Virus record (IMG/VR): IMGVR_UViG_3300036794_000053
Span: 1 to 64,000 of that record
Origin: a virus
Lineage: Duplodnaviria > Caudoviricetes
DNA: 64,000 nt
Strand: one strand, 5' to 3'
Numbering within the stretch: position 1 is the stretch's first letter; each line of letters begins with the position of its first letter. The position numbers were made by a program, and so were the translations under genes. Shown here piece after piece: positions 1,910 through 12,228 of this stretch. The notes under the pieces are model-generated. The model worked only from the letters and a program-made list of their open reading frames with translations, ran no database searches and was not told where the DNA came from.

Positions 1910-2322
1910 GTTACTTTGTAGAGATCGACCAGAACGCGATCAACGTGGGACGCAGACACCAACGCGGTAAGTGCGCCATCGCGTATGCAATCGCTAACCG
2001 ATATCCGGAGGCACGGCACATCAACGTGGACCGTGACGAGGTCAGGTTCACCGACTCCTACGAGCGGGTCCGGCACTGCTTCAAGATGCCGGATAACGGC
2101 ACCGAGTTCGTCGACAAGTGGGACGCGGACGAACCAGTCGAACCGTTCCGGTTGAACCTCACTCCGAGCTTGGAGAAGTGGAATAAGCCGGCGAAGGAAC
2201 GCAGCCCGCGCGACCTGGTGCGGACCACGCACGTGAACACCGAGTTGCCGTTGGCGCCGCGGAGCGTGTCACCGAAGTCGATCGCTACTAGGCCGATGAA
2301 GAAGCAGGAGGCCGGAAGTTGA
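1906..2322 (+). CDS. Hypothetical protein
   Basis: AGGAGG RBS, GTGA overlap. Confidence 0.7.
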   Translation: MSYFVEIDQNAINVGRRHQRGKCAIAYAIANRYPEARHINVDRDEVRFTDSYERVRHCFKMPDNGTEFVDKWDADEPVEPFRLNLTPSLEKWNKPAKERSPRDLVRTTHVNTELPLAPRSVSPKSIATRPMKKQEAGS

Positions 2323-2467
2323 CCTCCGCCGGCCGTCACCGCGGGGACCGCCCCAACCCAACCTTGCAGGGGCTTCGCGGCCGAACCACGCATCACATGA
2401 ATGATCGTGGGAAAGTCCCCGCCCATTTCATCATCGATCTCATCAAAACCGAGAAGTCGAAGGTTGC

Positions 2468-2743
2468 GTGATGACGGATGAAGAGCCGAAGAGGAAGGCG
2501 CCTGCGAAGCCTCGGGTGCGTCGTCTTGCCGCGGCAGCAGCCGCCGAAGCCGAAGCCGAAGCGGGATCAGCGTCGCAAGCCTGGTTCGAGCCGTTAACGG
2601 AGAAGTGGTTTGACGAGGTGCCACCGCCGTGGCTGGCTGCGTGGTCGCAGGATGACACGCCGATTGGTTGCGAGTTGGCGCGGGAGAAAGCCCGTGCGGT
2701 CGCGGCTGCTATCCCGAAGCAGGAGACTCCGAAAGATGCGTAG
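2468..2743 (+). CDS. Hypothetical protein
   Basis: ORF in rightward gene run. Confidence 0.5.
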   Translation: MMTDEEPKRKAPAKPRVRRLAAAAAAEAEAEAGSASQAWFEPLTEKWFDEVPPPWLAAWSQDDTPIGCELAREKARAVAAAIPKQETPKDA

Positions 2744-2964
2744 CTGATTCGTCCGGTTGGTTTTACCGCGGCCGGCCCGGATGGTGTGGATCATCGTGTT
2801 GCCGTGTCGATTCCGTCGGTTGAGTGGGATCGGACTGAGGTTTTAACAGTGTGTGGTTTGTTGATTGTGTTGCATCCGTGGTCGTGTGAGGCGGTGTTTC
2901 ATGCGCGGGATGGTTTATGCCCAAGTTGTTGGGATTCGTTGTTCACAAGGGAGAGGCAAGACTG

Positions 2965-3654
2965 ATGTCCATTGATCTGGAGATGTACGCTCAGATCGTC
3001 CTCAGCCGCGGCGGTCACTCGATGCGCTCGTCGGGGTTGTGTTTGATGGAGGCGGCGGCGCTCATCGCCGGCGAGAAACACTCCGACCACCCGGGGTGCG
3101 TGTCATACACGCTGACCTCTTTCGGGATCGGGTTGAATGATCAGCTGCCGGACGATTTGCGGCAGGAACTGAAGCAGCACATCCCCGCGCTGATCGGTAC
3201 CCGCGACGACGGGTTGGACGTGCAGCGTAAGCACATGTCGTTCGACTGGCTGGCGCGGACGTGGCTGCCCACCTTCCTGGACTTGCCGGCCGACTCGCAG
3301 TGCGCCGAGGCGGCTCAGCAGCTCCGCGACCTCGGCGCCATTACGGACCGAGAGTCGGTGTGTGATGCTGTTCAGCTGGTGGAGAAGGTTTGCGCGGATG
3401 TGCCGGGATCGGCTGGCAATACTCGGTACGGCACGCCGGTGGGGTCGTCCATGTATTACCCCGCGGTCAACGCCGCGTACGGCATCCCGTTTGACGGGAG
3501 CATTTTGGGCGGCCGCAAGCAGAGCCTGCTCGAATCGGGGCTGACGAGCCTCGCCGGGCACGCCATCGAGGCAAGTACACGCGACGTTGATGCGACGGTG
3601 CGTGAGCTGCAGCTGTCCGCGATCGGCCTTTACGGCGACATGATCAAGGCCTGA
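2965..3654 (+). CDS. Hypothetical protein (CLMEAA...SDHPxCVS family)
   Basis: AAGGGAGAGG RBS before ATG 2965. Confidence 0.7.
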   Translation: MSIDLEMYAQIVLSRGGHSMRSSGLCLMEAAALIAGEKHSDHPGCVSYTLTSFGIGLNDQLPDDLRQELKQHIPALIGTRDDGLDVQRKHMSFDWLARTWLPTFLDLPADSQCAEAAQQLRDLGAITDRESVCDAVQLVEKVCADVPGSAGNTRYGTPVGSSMYYPAVNAAYGIPFDGSILGGRKQSLLESGLTSLAGHAIEASTRDVDATVRELQLSAIGLYGDMIKA

Positions 3655-3695
3655 CACACATACCCCGAGAAACACACGACAAGGAGAGGCCGTAA

Positions 3696-5168
3696 GTGGC
3701 GACGACTGTAGTGAAGAAGTTGGTGGACTCCGATCTCATCACCGGCGATGAGATCGAGTTCCGCACCGACGACAAGAAACTCATCACGCTGCCGAAGGGC
3801 ACGAAGTACAGCGAGTTGATGAGGATTCTGGAGGCGAAGAAGCAGGAACAGGAAACTGTTGCTGACTTCACCCGAGTCTTCAATTACCGCCCGTATGACG
3901 GTGCGGTGGCCACCGCGATCGTGCTCAAGGCTAGGTATGGGTTGGTGATGGGGAAAACCCTCACCATCCAAACCCCGTTCGGTGAGCAGAAACGGCCGCC
4001 GCAGGTGTTGGAGGTCCCGATCGGGCCGGGTGGGAAGTCGATGCAGGCGCCGTGGGGGTGCATCGAGATTCCCGTGATCGAGGGCGGCGAGGTGCATCTG
4101 GGTGCGACGACGCACTCCGATTTCGGGTCGGTGTTCTTTATCCGGATTCGGGCGAAGCGGATGTACGCGAAGGAAGCGGAGGAGTTTTTCGCCGAGATCG
4201 CGGAGCAGTTGAAGAACGCGAGCATCTACCGTGGTAAAGCGGTGGCGGGTGCCGATGAGTTGGCGTTCATCGAGGACCTGGACAAGTTCGATCCGAAGCA
4301 GATCGTGTTCGCCGCCGGGATTCAGCAGCAGCTGGAGGCGGCGTTGTATTCGCCGCTGCGTCATCCGCAGGCGTACCGGTCGGAGAAGATTCCGCTGAAG
4401 CGCGCGGTGCTGTTGCACGGCCCGTACGGAACAGGGAAGACCAGCATCGGGATGTTGGTGGCTCAGGAGGCGGTGAAGGCGGGGTGGACGTTTGTGATGG
4501 CCCGCCCGGGCCGTGACCGCGTCCAAGATGTCCTCACCACTGCCCGGTTGTATGCGCCGGCTGTGGTGTGGGTGGAGGACATCGACACCGACACCGGCTC
4601 CAGCAACCCGAAGTCGATCTCCGAGATGCTGGATGCGTTTGACGGCATCACCACCAAGCAGGGTGAGATCATGATCGCCCTATCCACCAACCATATCGAT
4701 CGCGTGCCACCGGGAATGTTGCGTCCTGGCCGTCTCGACTATGTGTTGGAGATCGCGGCGCTGGATCGGGAAGCGACCGAGCGGCTGATTCGGGTGGTGG
4801 TGGCGCCTGGGAAGTTGGCGAAGAACGTCGACTTCGACGCGGTGTACGCGGAGATGGATCATTTCCTCCCCGCGTTTGTCCGGGCCACAGCCGATCGGGC
4901 CAGGTCGTTCGCTATCCACCGCACGAACGGTCGCACCGACTATGTCCTCACCACGGAGGATTTGGTGGGTGCGGCGCGGAGTCTGCATTCCCAGCGTGCC
5001 CTGCATCAGAGCGCGCAGGACCCGGCGCCGTTGCCGTCGGTGGATAAGGCGTTCCGTGACGCGGTCACGAAGGCCGTGAATGGGGTGCAGATGTTGGACG
5101 ACGACGGGGATTACATGGGGAAGTTGACTGTTCCCGCCGCTCCCGTCGCGCGGCCACTAAGAACCTAG
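3696..5168 (+). CDS. Classical AAA ATPase (single AAA module, long N-terminal region)
   Basis: Walker A GPYGTGKT, Walker B VVWVEDID, second region of homology TNHIDRVPPGMLRPGRLD. Confidence 0.92.
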   Translation: MATTVVKKLVDSDLITGDEIEFRTDDKKLITLPKGTKYSELMRILEAKKQEQETVADFTRVFNYRPYDGAVATAIVLKARYGLVMGKTLTIQTPFGEQKRPPQVLEVPIGPGGKSMQAPWGCIEIPVIEGGEVHLGATTHSDFGSVFFIRIRAKRMYAKEAEEFFAEIAEQLKNASIYRGKAVAGADELAFIEDLDKFDPKQIVFAAGIQQQLEAALYSPLRHPQAYRSEKIPLKRAVLLHGPYGTGKTSIGMLVAQEAVKAGWTFVMARPGRDRVQDVLTTARLYAPAVVWVEDIDTDTGSSNPKSISEMLDAFDGITTKQGEIMIALSTNHIDRVPPGMLRPGRLDYVLEIAALDREATERLIRVVVAPGKLAKNVDFDAVYAEMDHFLPAFVRATADRARSFAIHRTNGRTDYVLTTEDLVGAARSLHSQRALHQSAQDPAPLPSVDKAFRDAVTKAVNGVQMLDDDGDYMGKLTVPAAPVARPLRT

Positions 5169-5206
5169 ACGGGATGCCCCAACGGGCAGTAGGGGCATCC
5201 CGTCTA
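5166..5206. terminator. Perfect 15-bp inverted repeat hairpin after the AAA gene
   Basis: TAGACGGGATGCCCC-N11-GGGGCATCCCGTCTA; no U-tract on +. Confidence 0.5.
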
Positions 5207-5235
5207 CGGAAACACACAACACAAGGAGAGTAGCA

Positions 5236-5463
5236 ATGCCGAACGTGCTCAACGTGATGGACCGGACTGGTGACAGCCGGATCGAGTGGAATCCGAATGT
5301 GCCGGCCGAGGTGGAGATGGCGCGGGCCGCGTTCAACGCGGCGAAGGACAAGAAGTACCTGACCTACCGCCTCGATGGGGACGGTAACCGGGGTGAGGTG
5401 CTTCGGGAGTTCGATCCGGGTGCCGCTCGGATTGTGGCGTCGCCGCAGCCGCAGGGCGGCTGA
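5236..5463 (+). CDS. Small putative beta-grasp (ubiquitin/MoaD-like) protein ending in GG
   Basis: 75 aa; apparent b-b-a-b-b-b pattern; C-terminus RIVASPQPQGG-stop; AAGGAG RBS. Confidence 0.6.
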   Translation: MPNVLNVMDRTGDSRIEWNPNVPAEVEMARAAFNAAKDKKYLTYRLDGDGNRGEVLREFDPGAARIVASPQPQGG

Positions 5464-5469
5464 TCTGTA

Positions 5470-6177
5470 ATGCCTGACGAGGTGCCCCCGCCAGTGACGG
5501 TTCAGGTCACAATCGGCGGACGGGAAATCTCAACTTCCACCGTCGAGCTCGCTAACTGGTACATGCAACAGTACGAGTTGAATGGTTGGGGAACGACGAG
5601 CGGGGGCACCTTGTCAGGCGGCACTTTCTCGATGACTATCTACCCGACGACGTACACCACCGTGAGTACAAACGAGCCGCGGGTGCTGACGGAAGCGGAA
5701 CAGGAACACCTGGAGCAGCAGCGGGAAATAGCGGAGCAGCAGGTCCGGGAGGAGCAGGCGCAACGTGACGCGCGGCAGGCCCGGTGGGAAATGGCCCGCC
5801 AAGAAGAACGCATGCAGCGCCAGGAAGCCATACGACGCAGCACGGAACTCCTCGAATCACTGCTGAACGACACCCAGCGGGAAAGTTACTGCGCCCACGG
5901 CCACTTTGACGTTGTCGGTTCCGCGGGCAACATCTACCGCATTGAGCAGGGCAGCAACGGCAATATCTTGTGGCTTGTGGACGGCGAGGTCGCCGGCAGG
6001 CTGTGCGCCCACCCGCATTTCGGCGACGCGGGCGGCTGGCTCCCCCTTCCCGACGTCGCTCTCGGGCAAATGCTGGCTTTAGTTACTGACGAACGTGGCT
6101 TCATCGACATAGCGAATGTGCATGCCGGTCGCCGACCTGAATATCCCGAGCTAGAAGAGGTGGAAGCTGATGTGTGA
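5470..6177 (+). CDS. Hypothetical protein: coiled coil + C-terminal domain with LCAHP motif
   Basis: Starts 6 nt after the GG protein; E/Q/R-rich coil then a globular domain. Confidence 0.7.
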   Translation: MPDEVPPPVTVQVTIGGREISTSTVELANWYMQQYELNGWGTTSGGTLSGGTFSMTIYPTTYTTVSTNEPRVLTEAEQEHLEQQREIAEQQVREEQAQRDARQARWEMARQEERMQRQEAIRRSTELLESLLNDTQRESYCAHGHFDVVGSAGNIYRIEQGSNGNILWLVDGEVAGRLCAHPHFGDAGGWLPLPDVALGQMLALVTDERGFIDIANVHAGRRPEYPELEEVEADV

Positions 6178-6481
6178 GGTATGTCGAGTGATCAGGGCGG
6201 CGATCGAGCAGCGGTGCCTGCACCCCGCCGAGGGTGAGATATGCGGGAAGCCGGCGAAAACGCACGTTCGCATGATGGGTGGGATGTCGTTGGCGTGCGA
6301 CGAACATTCCCGCGCGAACAAGTGGCACATCACGGATGCGCACGAGATCGGCCCGTCGTGTGCGTTGCCGGATGCGACGTGGGTTGAGGGCGGCGAGGGT
6401 GAGTCGTCGCGGTGTGAGGTGGACGGTTTGAACGAGCTGTTGGAGGCGGTGTCGTCCGGGAAGATGCCGCCCCATGGCTGA
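6170..6481 (+). CDS. Cys-rich hypothetical protein
   Basis: Overlapping start in operon. Confidence 0.6.
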   Translation: MCEVCRVIRAAIEQRCLHPAEGEICGKPAKTHVRMMGGMSLACDEHSRANKWHITDAHEIGPSCALPDATWVEGGEGESSRCEVDGLNELLEAVSSGKMPPHG

Positions 6482-6814
6482 TGTGGTGGCCGAGTTGCGG
6501 TATTGGGCGCAGGTGTGCGCCGAGAAAGCGGAGTCGTGTCCGTTTGGTGAGCGTGGGGCCTGGTTGGAAGTGGCGGAACGGCTGACGGAACGGGCCGACG
6601 AGCTGGATTCCAAGCCGGGAATTGGGTGGGCTGTGTTCCGTGAGCCCGATGAATGAGGAGCCGTGGACGTGTCCGTGCGGGCACGAATTAGACCCGGACG
6701 ATAGGGAGGTGTGTCTGGTGTGGGATCGGCGGAACAGGGTGCATAAGGTGCGCACGACACGTTCGTGGTGTGAATGCTGCGGGGCTGATCTCGCCGTGTT
6801 GGAGGGGTGGACGC

Positions 6815-7123
6815 GTGATTGATTTCCTGGCCGATGTGTTCTCCCTGGCGTGTTATCTGCTGGTGGGGACACTGTATGCGCGGGCGAATGCGCAGCGGTG
6901 TTACAGCGCGGCGGCGAAAAAGTGGGCCTCAAGGAATATCGATCTGGTGAATGCGTCGTATCGGGAACGGGTCGCGTTGCATGTGTTGGCGTGGCCGATT
7001 GTGTGGCCCACCCAGCTGATCGGCCGGACGGTGGATGCGCCTGTCGGGGATATGGAGTCGGCGTATTCGTCGTGGAAGTACATGCAGGAACAGGTCGCGT
7101 TGGCCCGGAAGGAGCTGGAGTAG
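6815..7123 (+). CDS. Membrane-associated hypothetical protein (paralog of 22712-23095)
   Basis: GGAGG RBS; shared YLxVGxLYAR motif. Confidence 0.6.
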   Translation: MIDFLADVFSLACYLLVGTLYARANAQRCYSAAAKKWASRNIDLVNASYRERVALHVLAWPIVWPTQLIGRTVDAPVGDMESAYSSWKYMQEQVALARKELE

Positions 7124-7474
7124 ATGCCGAATCTTGCTCTGAGGCGTCAGTTGGAGGAGCGGATTGAGCGTGAGCTGGAGGAGCGGATCGAGGCGGTTCG
7201 CCGGTTCGCGGAAGAACACACATATGAGGGACCACTTCCCGAGAGGAAACTGGAGAGTAAGCCCGTGAGTAGCAGGAAGACGCTCGGTATGCAGGCCACT
7301 CGGTGGGCGCAATGCGTGGGCGCTGTGGCCGCTGGTTCTTTTAGCGTCGTGTTCGGCGTGGTGTGGCTGGTCGCCGCGTGGCAGACCCTGTCGATGCAGG
7401 AGGCGTTGGCCATCACGCTCGCTGGGGTGTCGCTGGTCCTGGGTACAGTGTTGTTCGCGGTAACCGAGCGCTAG
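7124..7474 (+). CDS. Membrane protein
   Basis: Two C-terminal hydrophobic segments. Confidence 0.6.
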   Translation: MPNLALRRQLEERIERELEERIEAVRRFAEEHTYEGPLPERKLESKPVSSRKTLGMQATRWAQCVGAVAAGSFSVVFGVVWLVAAWQTLSMQEALAITLAGVSLVLGTVLFAVTER

Positions 7475-8254
7475 ATGACCGAACCACAACAGGTGCTGAT
7501 CGCGGGCGATTGGCACACCAACACCCTGTGGGCGAAGGCGGTGATCGAGAAGCTACCCGAGGCGATACCCGAGGGCCCGCGGATTCTGTTGCACGTCGGC
7601 GACTTCGGATTGTGGCCAGGACCAGAAGGCAAAAGATACCTGTATGAGGTGACGGCCGCGCTCGCCGCGGTGGATGCGGAGTTGTGGTTTGTCGACGGCA
7701 ACCATGAAGACCACGCCCGGTTGACCGCGCTACTCGCGGCCCGTCATGGCAACCGTTCACAACCAATCCCCATCACCGACCGGATCACATGGCTACCGCG
7801 GGGCTACCGGTGGACATGGCACGACCGTGAATGGTTGGCATTAGGTGGGGCTACGTCGGTGGATCGGGCTGTTCGCATTCCTGGCCGTAGTTGGTGGGCG
7901 AACGAATCAATCCACCACGCCGACTTCAAAGCCGCTGTAGCGGGTGGCCACGCGGACGTGATGGTGACCCATGACTGTCCGCAGGGTGTGCCGTTGTCGC
8001 TGTCGGGGAATGTGCCTGGGTGGTGGGAGTTGGGGCCCGCCGAGGAGCATCGGCGCATCCTGCGGCAGATCGTGGACCAGGTCAAACCGTTCTGGCTGGT
8101 CCACGGCCACTACCACCTGTTCCACAACACGGTTGTTGATCTGGGTTGGGGGTGTCTGCGTGTTGTCGGTTTGGATTGTGATGGTGCGTGGGCTGGGCAC
8201 ACCGTGTTGTGCGATGTGCGGGACATGACGTTCAAGGATGTGTTTCGTGAGTAA
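7475..8254 (+). CDS. Calcineurin-like metallophosphoesterase
   Basis: GDWH, GDFG, GNHE, THD and HGHYH motifs. Confidence 0.9.
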   Translation: MTEPQQVLIAGDWHTNTLWAKAVIEKLPEAIPEGPRILLHVGDFGLWPGPEGKRYLYEVTAALAAVDAELWFVDGNHEDHARLTALLAARHGNRSQPIPITDRITWLPRGYRWTWHDREWLALGGATSVDRAVRIPGRSWWANESIHHADFKAAVAGGHADVMVTHDCPQGVPLSLSGNVPGWWELGPAEEHRRILRQIVDQVKPFWLVHGHYHLFHNTVVDLGWGCLRVVGLDCDGAWAGHTVLCDVRDMTFKDVFRE

Positions 8255-10256: not shown

Positions 10257-10520
10257 TTGACGAAGAGATGGAAGCCTCGCCCTGACTGGATGCTATCCGC
10301 GCCGTGCGCCAGCGTGGACCCAGAGATTTTCTTCCCCGACCCGAAGCAACGCCAAAACTCGTGGGCCGCGAAGAAAGTATGTGCACGCTGCCCATATAAG
10401 GCGCCGTGCGTGTTGTGGGCGATTGAACACCACGAGAAGTGGGGCATTTGGGGTGGGTTAGGCCCCGATGCCCGTCAACTACTTGCCGTTGAACTCGGTT
10501 TCCCGACCGAGGCGGCATGA
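10257..10520 (+). CDS. whiB: WhiB-family transcriptional regulator
   Basis: C...DPEIFFP...AKKVCARCPYKAPC...GIWGG. Confidence 0.93.
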   Translation: MTKRWKPRPDWMLSAPCASVDPEIFFPDPKQRQNSWAAKKVCARCPYKAPCVLWAIEHHEKWGIWGGLGPDARQLLAVELGFPTEAA

Positions 10521-10534
10521 CAGGAGAGAGCGAC

Positions 10535-10936
10535 ATGGCGAACATCAAGATGTTGGAAGAAGTAATGGACTACATCAAGACACATCCGGAGCAGCTTCGG
10601 CAGGATGTGTGGGCAACCCAGAAGGCGGATTGTGGGACGGCGTGCTGCTTCGCCGGCTGGACCGCGGTGCTCAACGGGTACCAGTTGGACTGGCTGGAAG
10701 ACGACGACATGACATCCATCGTCCGCGACAAGGACGGGATTCACCACGTCATCTCCGACCTCGCGGAAGAACTCCTTGACCTGACCCAGTTCGAGGGTGA
10801 TGTGTTGTTCGCGGGGTCGAACACGATCGACGAGCTGGAGCAGATGGTGAAAAACCTGGCCAACGGCGCCCACATCAAGGCCTGCCTGGCTGTCACTGTG
10901 CCGGCCACTGTTCCCGTTCTGCCGGAGGCGGCGTGA
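10535..10936 (+). CDS. Paralog family A, copy 1
   Basis: MANI..L..V..YI..HPE...Q..WA....CGT.CCFAG motif. Confidence 0.8.
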   Translation: MANIKMLEEVMDYIKTHPEQLRQDVWATQKADCGTACCFAGWTAVLNGYQLDWLEDDDMTSIVRDKDGIHHVISDLAEELLDLTQFEGDVLFAGSNTIDELEQMVKNLANGAHIKACLAVTVPATVPVLPEAA

Positions 10937-11319
10937 TGGCAAACATCCCAGAACTGGAACGCGTACTCCAGTACATTAAGGACCACCCAGAGCAGCACGA
11001 CCAGAACATATGGGCCGCTAAGCACGGGTGCAAAACGACGATGTGTTTCGCCGGCACTGCGGTTGCGTTGTCTGACCAGTACGACTTGGTGTGGGAGCGA
11101 GGCGCCATCACTGGCATCTACAGTTGCGCCCAGGCGGTTGACCGGGAAACGTGGGAAATTGTGTCTGTTCGCGGGGCTGCCGAAAGGATTCTGGGGCTTG
11201 AAAACAGGGAGTCTTCAGCGTTGTTCAACTGGTCACGCACCCGCGACGACCTGGAGCTGATGGTGAAGAACCTCGCCAACGGCGACGACGTCCTCAAAGG
11301 TATGGGTGAGTCATTCTGA
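10936..11319 (+). CDS. Paralog family A, copy 2
   Basis: Same motif; TGATG coupling. Confidence 0.8.
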   Translation: MANIPELERVLQYIKDHPEQHDQNIWAAKHGCKTTMCFAGTAVALSDQYDLVWERGAITGIYSCAQAVDRETWEIVSVRGAAERILGLENRESSALFNWSRTRDDLELMVKNLANGDDVLKGMGESF

Positions 11320-11729
11320 TGGCGAACATTCCAGAACTAGAACGCGTCCTTCAGTACATCAAGGACCACCCGGAGGAACACGACCAGCATTCGTGGGCGC
11401 ATCGGGGTCCGTCGTGTGGGACGACGATGTGTTTCGCCGGCACCGCGGTCCAGTTGTCGGGCAAGTATCAGTTGGAGTGGTCGGCGACGGAAGGCGCTGC
11501 CTACGCCCGCGCGAACAATGCTACCGATGCTCGTGGGCGCTCCTGGTTTATCCCGGATGCCGCGGAGGAACTCCTAGGCCTCACCGCGCGTGAGTCTCAT
11601 GCGCTGTTCCTCGCCGCGACCAACATCGACGAGCTGGAACTGATGGTGAAGAACTTGGCCAACGGCGACCATGCCCGCACCGGACTAATCGAACTGCGTG
11701 AAGCAAAGAGGAGACGTTCTGATGGCTAA
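11319..11729 (+). CDS. Paralog family A, copy 3
   Basis: N-terminus nearly identical to copy 2. Confidence 0.8.
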   Translation: MANIPELERVLQYIKDHPEEHDQHSWAHRGPSCGTTMCFAGTAVQLSGKYQLEWSATEGAAYARANNATDARGRSWFIPDAAEELLGLTARESHALFLAATNIDELELMVKNLANGDHARTGLIELREAKRRRSDG

Positions 11730-12228
11730 TGTTGCGCTGCTCGGAAAGGTACTCGACCACATTCGGGCCAACCGGAAAGAGCACAGCCAGGAACAGTGGG
11801 CCCGCACCACTCGCTGTGGAACAACCTACTGTTTCGCGGGGTGGACGGTGCAGCTGGCCGGACATGAGATCGATTGGAGTGACTGCGCGATCACCGAGAC
11901 GCTAGATGTGTATGACGACGCGGTCTTCGTCACCGGTTCCTGCAAGGTACCCGACGAGCGGCCGGAATATGGGGAGTTGTTCGGCGGGTCGGCGGCGATC
12001 TGGACTGTGGCCCGCTACGAGCTCGGGCTGACCGAGAATGAGGCGGCCGCACTGTTCATGGGGGCGAACACATTCGCCGCTGTGGAGGAGACGGTGGCCC
12101 GGATCATCGCCGACGAGGAACTGACCGAGGAACTGCACGCTGAACAGGCCCGCGCCGCCGAACTGACCGCCGCGCTAGCTGTTGAGCTTGACCTCGCGGC
12201 GGGGTTGCGCGAGTTGGTCGCGGCCTAA
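11722..12228 (+). CDS. Paralog family A, copy 4
   Basis: CGTTYCFAGW motif. Confidence 0.8.
   Translation: MANVALLGKVLDHIRANRKEHSQEQWARTTRCGTTYCFAGWTVQLAGHEIDWSDCAITETLDVYDDAVFVTGSCKVPDERPEYGELFGGSAAIWTVARYELGLTENEAAALFMGANTFAAVEETVARIIADEELTEELHAEQARAAELTAALAVELDLAAGLRELVAA

Follow-up and report, generated by a model that had tools for sequence, protein, structure and literature searches.

How would a phage use a ubiquitin-like protein with a free Gly-Gly end if the phage encodes no recognizable enzyme to activate it? This question is raised by three adjacent genes in a virus of the Caudoviricetes (Duplodnaviria), IMG/VR record IMGVR_UViG_3300036794_000053. The record is 106 kb long, an estimated 86% complete and about 61% GC; we analyzed its first 64 kb, here called the window. 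We confirmed three open reading frames (ORFs), all on the + strand: an AAA ATPase of 490 residues (3696-5168), a 75-residue protein with a terminal Gly-Gly, here the GG protein (5236-5463), and a 235-residue protein with one conserved Cys, here the Cys partner (5470-6177). A sequence-only reading of this DNA had joined all three in a minimal tagging and unfolding system directed at host proteins, possibly independent of any activating enzyme (E1). We propose another reading, tentatively and at slightly less than an even chance: the core would be a two-gene phage ubiquitin-like module, consisting of a GG tag and a one-Cys partner, that is activated by the host and carries out a putative conjugation step, with the ATPase as an optional neighbor.

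We refer to the whole 106-kb record as G000 and to relatives of it as G001, G002, and G003; G002 is complete, 122 kb long with terminal repeats, and is also listed as L024. Homologous loci carry L numbers (L002 to L202). L037 is a 191-kb phage, and L123 to L202 include 79 IMG/VR loci with homologs of the ATPase.

The GG protein and its Cys partner

The 75-residue protein ends in ...REFDPGAARIVASPQPQGG-stop. Its AlphaFold2 model, built on an alignment of 110 sequences, has a predicted local distance difference test (pLDDT) score of 90 and the order strand-strand-helix-strand-strand-strand, followed by a flexible tail in which the pLDDT drops to 67 past strand 5. The closest solved folds in a structure search were beta-grasps of the ubiquitin or B1 type, and chains 8tyx and 8tyz, the ubiquitin-like protein (Ubl) of the bacterial Bil system, were among the best Foldseek matches. 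The earlier suggestion of a beta-grasp fold is thus supported by the model; a specific ubiquitin ancestry is not established.

Is the Gly-Gly end peculiar to this phage? In a set of 1.84 billion cluster representatives, a profile of the GG family matched 1,676 clusters at E ≤0.001, almost all of them from uncultured phages. An exact C-terminal GG was present in 141 of the 150 best family members, the match reaching the last residue in nearly all 150, and every close homolog (63-79% identity) has it. Of 35 distinct GG proteins taken from homologous loci, 29 have GG as their last two residues, three have AG, and a single one has SG; of the other two, one runs on for five residues past the GG, and one is part of a fused ORF with 138 more residues. 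These alignments show an exposed C-terminal Gly-Gly that is, to judge from its conservation, under strong selection. The last Arg or Lys of the window's protein is 10 residues from the C terminus, so that a trypsin remnant would be 10 residues long and not diGly.

Extensions of one to five residues past the GG were seen at L167 (6431-6652, AGGC) and L147 (3927-4187, AGGV), each with a single extra residue, and at L051 (about 6001-6246, GG followed by ALGYD). Members with such extra residues could be precursors requiring trimming. A 230-residue protein, P0143, was considered as a fusion of the GG domain and set aside: its added part is a DUF6197 region, and it occurs on one contig.

The GG protein had no match in Pfam (the Pup family included), PHROGs, NCBIfam, or PADLOC. 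The ThiS/MoaD profile PF02597 matched 0 of 110 family members at E ≤0.1, and the family has no sequence similarity to the BilA or BubA families. In the ESM Atlas it is found mostly in Uroviricota. The window's own GG protein and Cys partner matched nothing among GenBank phages by blastn or tblastn, and other family members matched only two uncultured GenBank records, LR756511 and KX853510. An alignment-based scan of species-representative genomes returned no family member; a degenerate DNA pattern run on such genomes gave 52 hits, and only three MAG (metagenome-assembled genome) contigs proved real. Within the reach of that pattern, the GG family thus seems essentially absent from isolate genomes.

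The partner gene starts 6 nt after the GG gene. It lies immediately 3' of the GG gene in 26 of 26 IMG/VR loci, which were picked by a GG-family motif and range from 33 to 66% GC, and the same pairing was found in G001, G002, and G003, at L002, L004, L025, L028, L031, L037, L038, and L040, in Virus Rctr197k, in the 595-kb phage LR756511, and in the three MAG contigs. The pairing is thus obligate: no independent locus with visible downstream sequence has the GG gene without its partner. Several phages carry second, divergent copies of the pair in tandem. An array on the - strand of G002 (2303-7894) holds a second GG-like gene (104 residues, ending in PQTVGG) and then three partner paralogs (CAHS, CAYP, and CAAP); it continues with an 81-residue ORF, a STAS-like ORF, and the ATPase, and the main GG pair of this phage is 20 kb off.

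AlphaFold2 modeled the partner with a pLDDT of 81. The first 70 residues are poorly defined and are followed by a 57-residue helix (residues 75-131) and a compact domain: a helix (134-143), four strands (145-179) with Cys179 closing strand 4, a 13-residue loop, a helix (193-214), and a strand. The coiled coil and the C-terminal LCAHP domain picked out from sequence earlier correspond to that long helix, a coiled-coil candidate, and to the compact domain, inside which the LCAHP motif with Cys179 lies. In 42 distinct partner sequences, from phages of 33-66% GC, an equivalent of Cys179 is present in 41 of 41 complete domains, and Pro192, Asp195, Glu208, and Ala215-Asn216 are further highly conserved positions. 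The Cys that the sequence-only reading had singled out is therefore a family trait. Its "Cys-His" label did not survive, since in roughly one sequence in five the His at Cys +2 gives way to Q, Y, A, or N. Mean identity to homologs is 23% in the N-terminal region versus 49% in the C-terminal domain.

Does the partner resemble a known conjugating enzyme (E2)? It had no match in Pfam, PHROG, NCBIfam, or PADLOC. The UQ_con profile matched nothing in the phage, while its positive control matched nowhere either. The HP of the partner comes after the Cys, not before it as the HPN motif of E2 enzymes does. VIA structure searches with the partner model, both wide and second-look, returned coiled coils only. 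Because the 57-residue helix dominated the whole-model searches, they gave no usable structure match for the C-terminal domain, and the Foldseek and VIA lists, in which that helix prevailed, contained no chain of an E2 or RWD protein. A BFVD search found only homologs, the best being A0A1P8DIP4 (268 residues, E 1e-6), and one jumbo-phage protein. The uncharacterized protein A0A2L0UZL2 (397 residues) of the cultured Agrobacterium jumbo phage Atu_ph07 matches the partner model with a Foldseek E value of 1.7e-3 and may give a cultured experimental system. In the model, the order of elements and the spacing from Cys to helix resemble those of E2 enzymes; we claim a resemblance only.

Binding between the two proteins received weak support from complex prediction. 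The GG protein with partner residues 125-235 scored 0.33, against 0.01 for the best of three controls; contact agreement between runs was at least 93%, and the partner pLDDT was at least 71. Of 80 solved complexes, 58 reach the mark used in this test, as do 2 of 110 mismatched pairs; just 7 of the 80 solved complexes reach it with scores of 0.60 or less, along with both passing mismatches.

The AAA ATPase and its neighborhoods

The ATPase has Walker A (GPYGTGKT), Walker B (VVWVEDID), and RPGRLD motifs. It matched Pfam AAA (PF00004) at E 3.5e-17, phrog_10440 at E 7e-68, and Cdc48/p97 chains in the PDB at E 1e-30 to 2.8e-34. Matches to the PAN, CDC48, and FtsH models were weak; the pup_AAA model gave 38 bits against a cutoff of 505, and PADLOC gave weak partial IetA/TRIP13 hits near the P-loop only. 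Judged by Walker A, Walker B, and the second region of homology, the protein is a classical-clade, Cdc48-like AAA ATPase, as had been read from its RPGRLD motif. An N-terminal region of about 200 residues, of no known family, precedes an AAA domain at approximately residues 208-420.

Would such a protein unfold tagged substrates? Its alignment to Cdc48 spans 200 residues and was obtained with each of the two domains, D1 and D2. Opposite pore loop 1 of Cdc48 (KMAG in D1, MWYG in D2) it has MARPG, a segment with no aromatic residue and in this respect like the nonaromatic D1 loop; the corresponding segment of the L037 homolog is different again. In the Walker B motif (V-E-D-I-D; motif region at about residues 268-298), Glu-Asp takes the place of Asp-Glu. 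Because the pore-loop-1 segment lacks an aromatic residue, unfolding by threading is not to be assumed, and the earlier proposal that the ATPase unfolds tagged proteins is weakened.

Full-length homologs of the ATPase were found in 83 cultured-phage records, among them Mycobacterium prophages (McProf gp91), Gordonia phages (Ronaldo gp51), N4-like Erwinia and Pseudomonas phages, and Delftia phage PhiW-14 (gp235). They are 30-43% identical to the window's ATPase over 87-97% of its length. In these phages the gene sits amid replication genes or stands alone as an insert, at times in reverse orientation. The Ronaldo copy is reversed and has the tail chaperone gene on one side and the tape measure gene on the other.

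Between the ATPase and the GG gene lie 67 nt that hold a GC-rich hairpin of at least 12 bp; with its flanks, it folds at -36.3 kcal/mol (z -6.9). Hairpins of unrelated sequence occupy the same position in G001, L037, and L167. We considered whether the hairpin marks the three-gene block and ruled this out: a stem of at least 10 bp lies within 90 nt of the ATPase stop codon in 62 of 79 loci of the family, with or without a GG gene after it. Since the hairpin is present regardless of the downstream gene, it belongs to the ATPase cassette's own 3' end. In these comparisons the ATPase behaves like a self-contained mobile cassette.

How often, then, does it accompany the pair? The order ATPase, GG gene, Cys partner is present in the window, G001, L037, and L167, so the three-gene synteny expected by the sequence-only reading does recur. 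The L037 proteins are 28% (ATPase), 37% (GG protein), and 31% (partner) identical to those of the window, and the locus has no other genes in common with the window. In G002 and L191 the ATPase lies downstream of GG/partner arrays, a few kilobases apart. Only one member of the pair was seen upstream of the ATPase at L147, where the GG-like ORF is weak, and at L148, where the ORF is Cys-partner-like. Altogether, 6 of 80 IMG/VR ATPase loci have a GG or Cys-partner gene at a distance of 5 kb or less, in both gene orders. This proximity appears far above expectation, the expectation being taken from the family's share of roughly one in a million clusters and not from a matched control.

Seen from the pair, an ATPase gene within 6 kb occurs at no more than 1 of the 26 loci. 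The 197-kb Rctr197k carries the pair but lacks the ATPase, and a distance of 80 kb separates the two in LR756511. No pair was found in the flanks of the closest relatives of the window's ATPase (L123, 77% identity; L124 and L033, 75%). The ATPase can no longer be regarded as an obligate member of the system. We conclude from these comparisons that the gene is autonomous and has come to lie next to the pair on repeated occasions, as a recurrent and optional neighbor. Functional cooperation between the ATPase and the pair is possible, although we consider it somewhat more doubtful than the two-gene core itself.

Activation, conjugation, and rival explanations

The ThiF (E1) and Prok-JAB profiles matched nothing in the whole 106-kb record, in G001, in the complete G002, or in G003; the ThiF profile had matched in 14 of 14 control bacteria and archaea. 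The lack of an E1 or JAB gene first remarked on for the window therefore holds for the whole record and three relatives. To our knowledge, a free C-terminal carboxylate is not conjugated without ATP-dependent activation, and MoeB, ThiF, and MoeZ-type enzymes are, as far as we know, universal in bacteria. Because the carboxylate needs such activation and the phage has no E1, a host enzyme of the MoeB, ThiF, or MoeZ type is the simplest source if the pair conjugates, and the pair probably relies on one. The E1-independent conjugation suggested earlier leaves the free carboxylate with nothing to power its reaction; it is more economical to assume an E1-like enzyme of the host.

We propose the following sequence of events. 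An ATP-dependent, E1-like enzyme of the host (MoeB, ThiF, or MoeZ type) would activate the Gly-Gly carboxylate, and the tag would then be handed as a thioester to Cys179 of the partner. From there it would move to a target picked by the partner's variable N-terminal part. The ATPase, optional for the pair, may in this lineage act on tagged proteins or on the pair.

Several observations weigh against this proposal. No pair lies near 74 of the 80 ATPase loci, and the GG gene is absent from five complete cultured phages that have the ATPase, as judged by a profile that detects the gene in G000 to G003. Pair-positive ATPases are scattered on the tree, with seven Fitch changes for eight positives among 81 leaves. 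The ATPase's own hairpin parts it from the pair, and their adjacency could come from a common niche for accessory genes, not from a common function. On the side of the pair, no GG-family member is located in a cultured phage. None of 39 partner homologs matched an E2-type Pfam family (UQ_con or Prok-E2) at E ≤0.5, the best Foldseek match of the whole partner model in the PDB had an E value of 0.57, and "E2-like" describes solely the order of secondary structure elements and the position of the Cys in a predicted model. The use of a host E1 is purely what we infer, and covalent conjugation by any member of the family is putative, drawn by analogy with known systems.

Could the three genes nevertheless form one integrated system, in which host proteins are tagged independently of E1 and then unfolded or extracted by the ATPase? 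The three-gene order in distant phages (the window, G001, L037, and L167), the proximity of ATPase and pair in either order in several lineages, and the Cdc48-like sequence of the ATPase would all suit such a system, and pairs of a tag with an AAA protein are established (ubiquitin with Cdc48, Pup with Mpa). The likeness to ubiquitin or SAMP with Cdc48/p97 and to Pup with Mpa/ARC is that the gene of a classical-clade AAA protein adjoins that of a small tag with Gly-Gly at or close to its end. The differences are several. Relative to Cdc48, the phage ATPase has a single AAA domain, an N-terminal domain of unknown type, the MARPG pore-loop segment, and an ED Walker B; it mostly occurs without a tag, and the five complete genomes of cultured phages with full-length phrog_10440 homologs that were searched by profile have no GG gene. 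Pup is disordered and is ligated by PafA, whereas the phage tag is predicted to be a folded beta-grasp, and profile scans of nine nearby ORFs found no PafA or Dop family member. The separate occurrence of ATPase and pair described above, Rctr197k included, the terminator-like hairpin that ends the ATPase gene, and the lack of an aromatic residue opposite pore loop 1 all speak against integration. So does the want of an energy source for E1-independent conjugation, which the ATPase would hardly supply, as we know of no AAA domain with adenylation activity. We regard an integrated system as distinctly unlikely.

A noncovalent complex is a rival of a different kind. Here the GG tail would sit in a pocket of the partner as MoaD does in MoaE, making the GG protein a regulatory or assembly subunit, and the Cys would serve in binding or redox chemistry. 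An absolutely invariant Cys together with a near-invariant terminal Gly is, however, a signature of acyl transfer and not of a simple interface, and the one to five residues past the GG in a few members suggest processing in those members; we consider this reading unlikely, although less so than the integrated system. MoaD-MoaE, ThiS-ThiG, and CysO are also the model for a sulfur-carrier pair, in which a host E1-like enzyme would thiocarboxylate the GG protein and the Cys protein would be a sulfurtransferase for modification of phage nucleic acids or cofactors. These systems and the phage pair share a common logic: a beta-grasp with a GG tail, a partner encoded alongside, and an E1-like activator encoded elsewhere, for the phage pair presumably in the host. 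The nearest annotated ESM Atlas cluster is of the ThiS family, though at a score of 0.76, which is chance level. The GG protein lacks a ThiS/MoaD profile match, as do all 110 family members examined. The partner, with its variable N terminus, long coiled coil, and Cys domain, differs from MoaE and ThiG and is unlike known sulfurtransferases, and no PP-loop, radical SAM, or rhodanese gene consistently adjoins the pair. We give the sulfur-carrier explanation very little credence.

The remaining rival is counterdefense. Bil (BilABCD) and Bub are bacterial ubiquitination-like operons (PMC10557695; PMC11601596); both encode their own E1 and peptidase, Bub acts through oxyesters, and both act in antiphage immunity (PMC11601596). 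They are the systems closest in context to the phage pair, since they belong to the prokaryotic world and are tied to phage-host conflict, and like it they combine a small beta-grasp tag that has Gly at its C terminus with a partner bearing a single catalytic nucleophile (a candidate one here). Bil and Bub are host defense genes, whereas the pair is borne by phages and comes without E1, JAB, or protease and without an E2 profile match. The phage Ubl might mimic the tags of Bil, Bub, or CBASS Cap2, or host sulfur carriers, and with its partner trap or misdirect a host E1 or E2. A phage-borne module amid early accessory genes, a partner N terminus that evolves fast, and the Bil Ubl chains among the top Foldseek matches are what such a decoy could look like. 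The phages with the pair span 33-66% GC, far more than we would expect any single type of defense to cover; moreover, the family does not resemble BilA or BubA in sequence, and a decoy has no obvious need for a partner with a conserved Cys. We consider a decoy quite improbable, more so than integration of the three genes but less so than a sulfur-carrier pair.

Our preferred reading therefore remains the host-activated two-gene module. We found no publication describing the GG/Cys-partner pair. Prokaryotic ubiquitin-like conjugation has, as far as we know, so far been characterized on the side of the cell (sulfur carriers, SAMP, Pup, Bil, Bub, and CBASS), each system with an activating enzyme of its own. 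Phage pairs of a free Gly-Gly tag and a one-Cys partner, forming a very large family that is unannotated and comes without an E1, would mean new host-activated viral tagging, a new noncovalent use of a ubiquitin tail, or counterdefense. The recurring Cdc48-like neighbor supplies a concrete hypothesis for a reader of the tag, one testable with three genes. At its broadest, the idea is of a viral ubiquitin-segregase axis in bacteria: a minimal tag and a Cys carrier or ligase in phages of many phyla, a hijacked host sulfur-carrier E1, and, in several lineages, a Cdc48-like ATPase extracting or remodeling tagged host proteins. This is speculative, and we think it improbable in that full form.

Coordinates and surrounding genes

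The features of the locus are collected in Table 1.

Table 1. Features of the ATPase, GG, and Cys-partner genes, in window coordinates
Feature	Position	Strand	Basis
Single-domain classical-clade AAA ATPase, 490 residues	3696..5168	+	Pfam AAA, phrog_10440, and Cdc48/p97 matches
GC-rich terminator-like hairpin, no T tract, immediately 3' of the ATPase stop codon	5169..5203	+	Minimum free energy -28.4 kcal/mol, z -5.2
Shine-Dalgarno-like AAGGAGA, 6 nt ahead of the GG-gene ATG	5223..5229	+	Sequence reading
75-residue ubiquitin-like (predicted beta-grasp) protein, free C-terminal Gly-Gly	5236..5463	+	Model and homologs
Partner residues 1-70: variable, Thr/Ser/Trp-rich N-terminal region	5470..5679	+	Low model confidence; low identity
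Partner residues 75-131: long single helix, coiled-coil candidate	5692..5862	+	AlphaFold2 pLDDT >90
Partner residues 134-225: conserved C-terminal domain	5869..6144	+	Model and 42-sequence alignment
Codon of invariant Cys179	6004..6006	+	Cys in 41 of 41 complete domains

A small, Cys-rich, WhiB-like ORF at 10257-10520 fits an actinobacterial host; together with the closest cultured relatives of the ATPase, which are from Mycobacterium and Gordonia phages, it points to such a host for this phage. Upstream of the three genes, a 234-residue ORF (226-930) had no match in Pfam, PHROG, or NCBIfam. Downstream, a 259-residue ORF (7475-8254) has GDWH and GNHED motifs as in calcineurin-like metallophosphoesterases, with no NCBIfam match at E ≤0.01. 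Four tandem paralogous ORFs at 10517-12228 share the motifs HPE(Q/E)HDQ..W, T.CFAG, and MVKNLANG. A homolog of these ORFs was found at L033 (9488-10045), directly 3' of the ATPase, in the place where the GG pair would sit.

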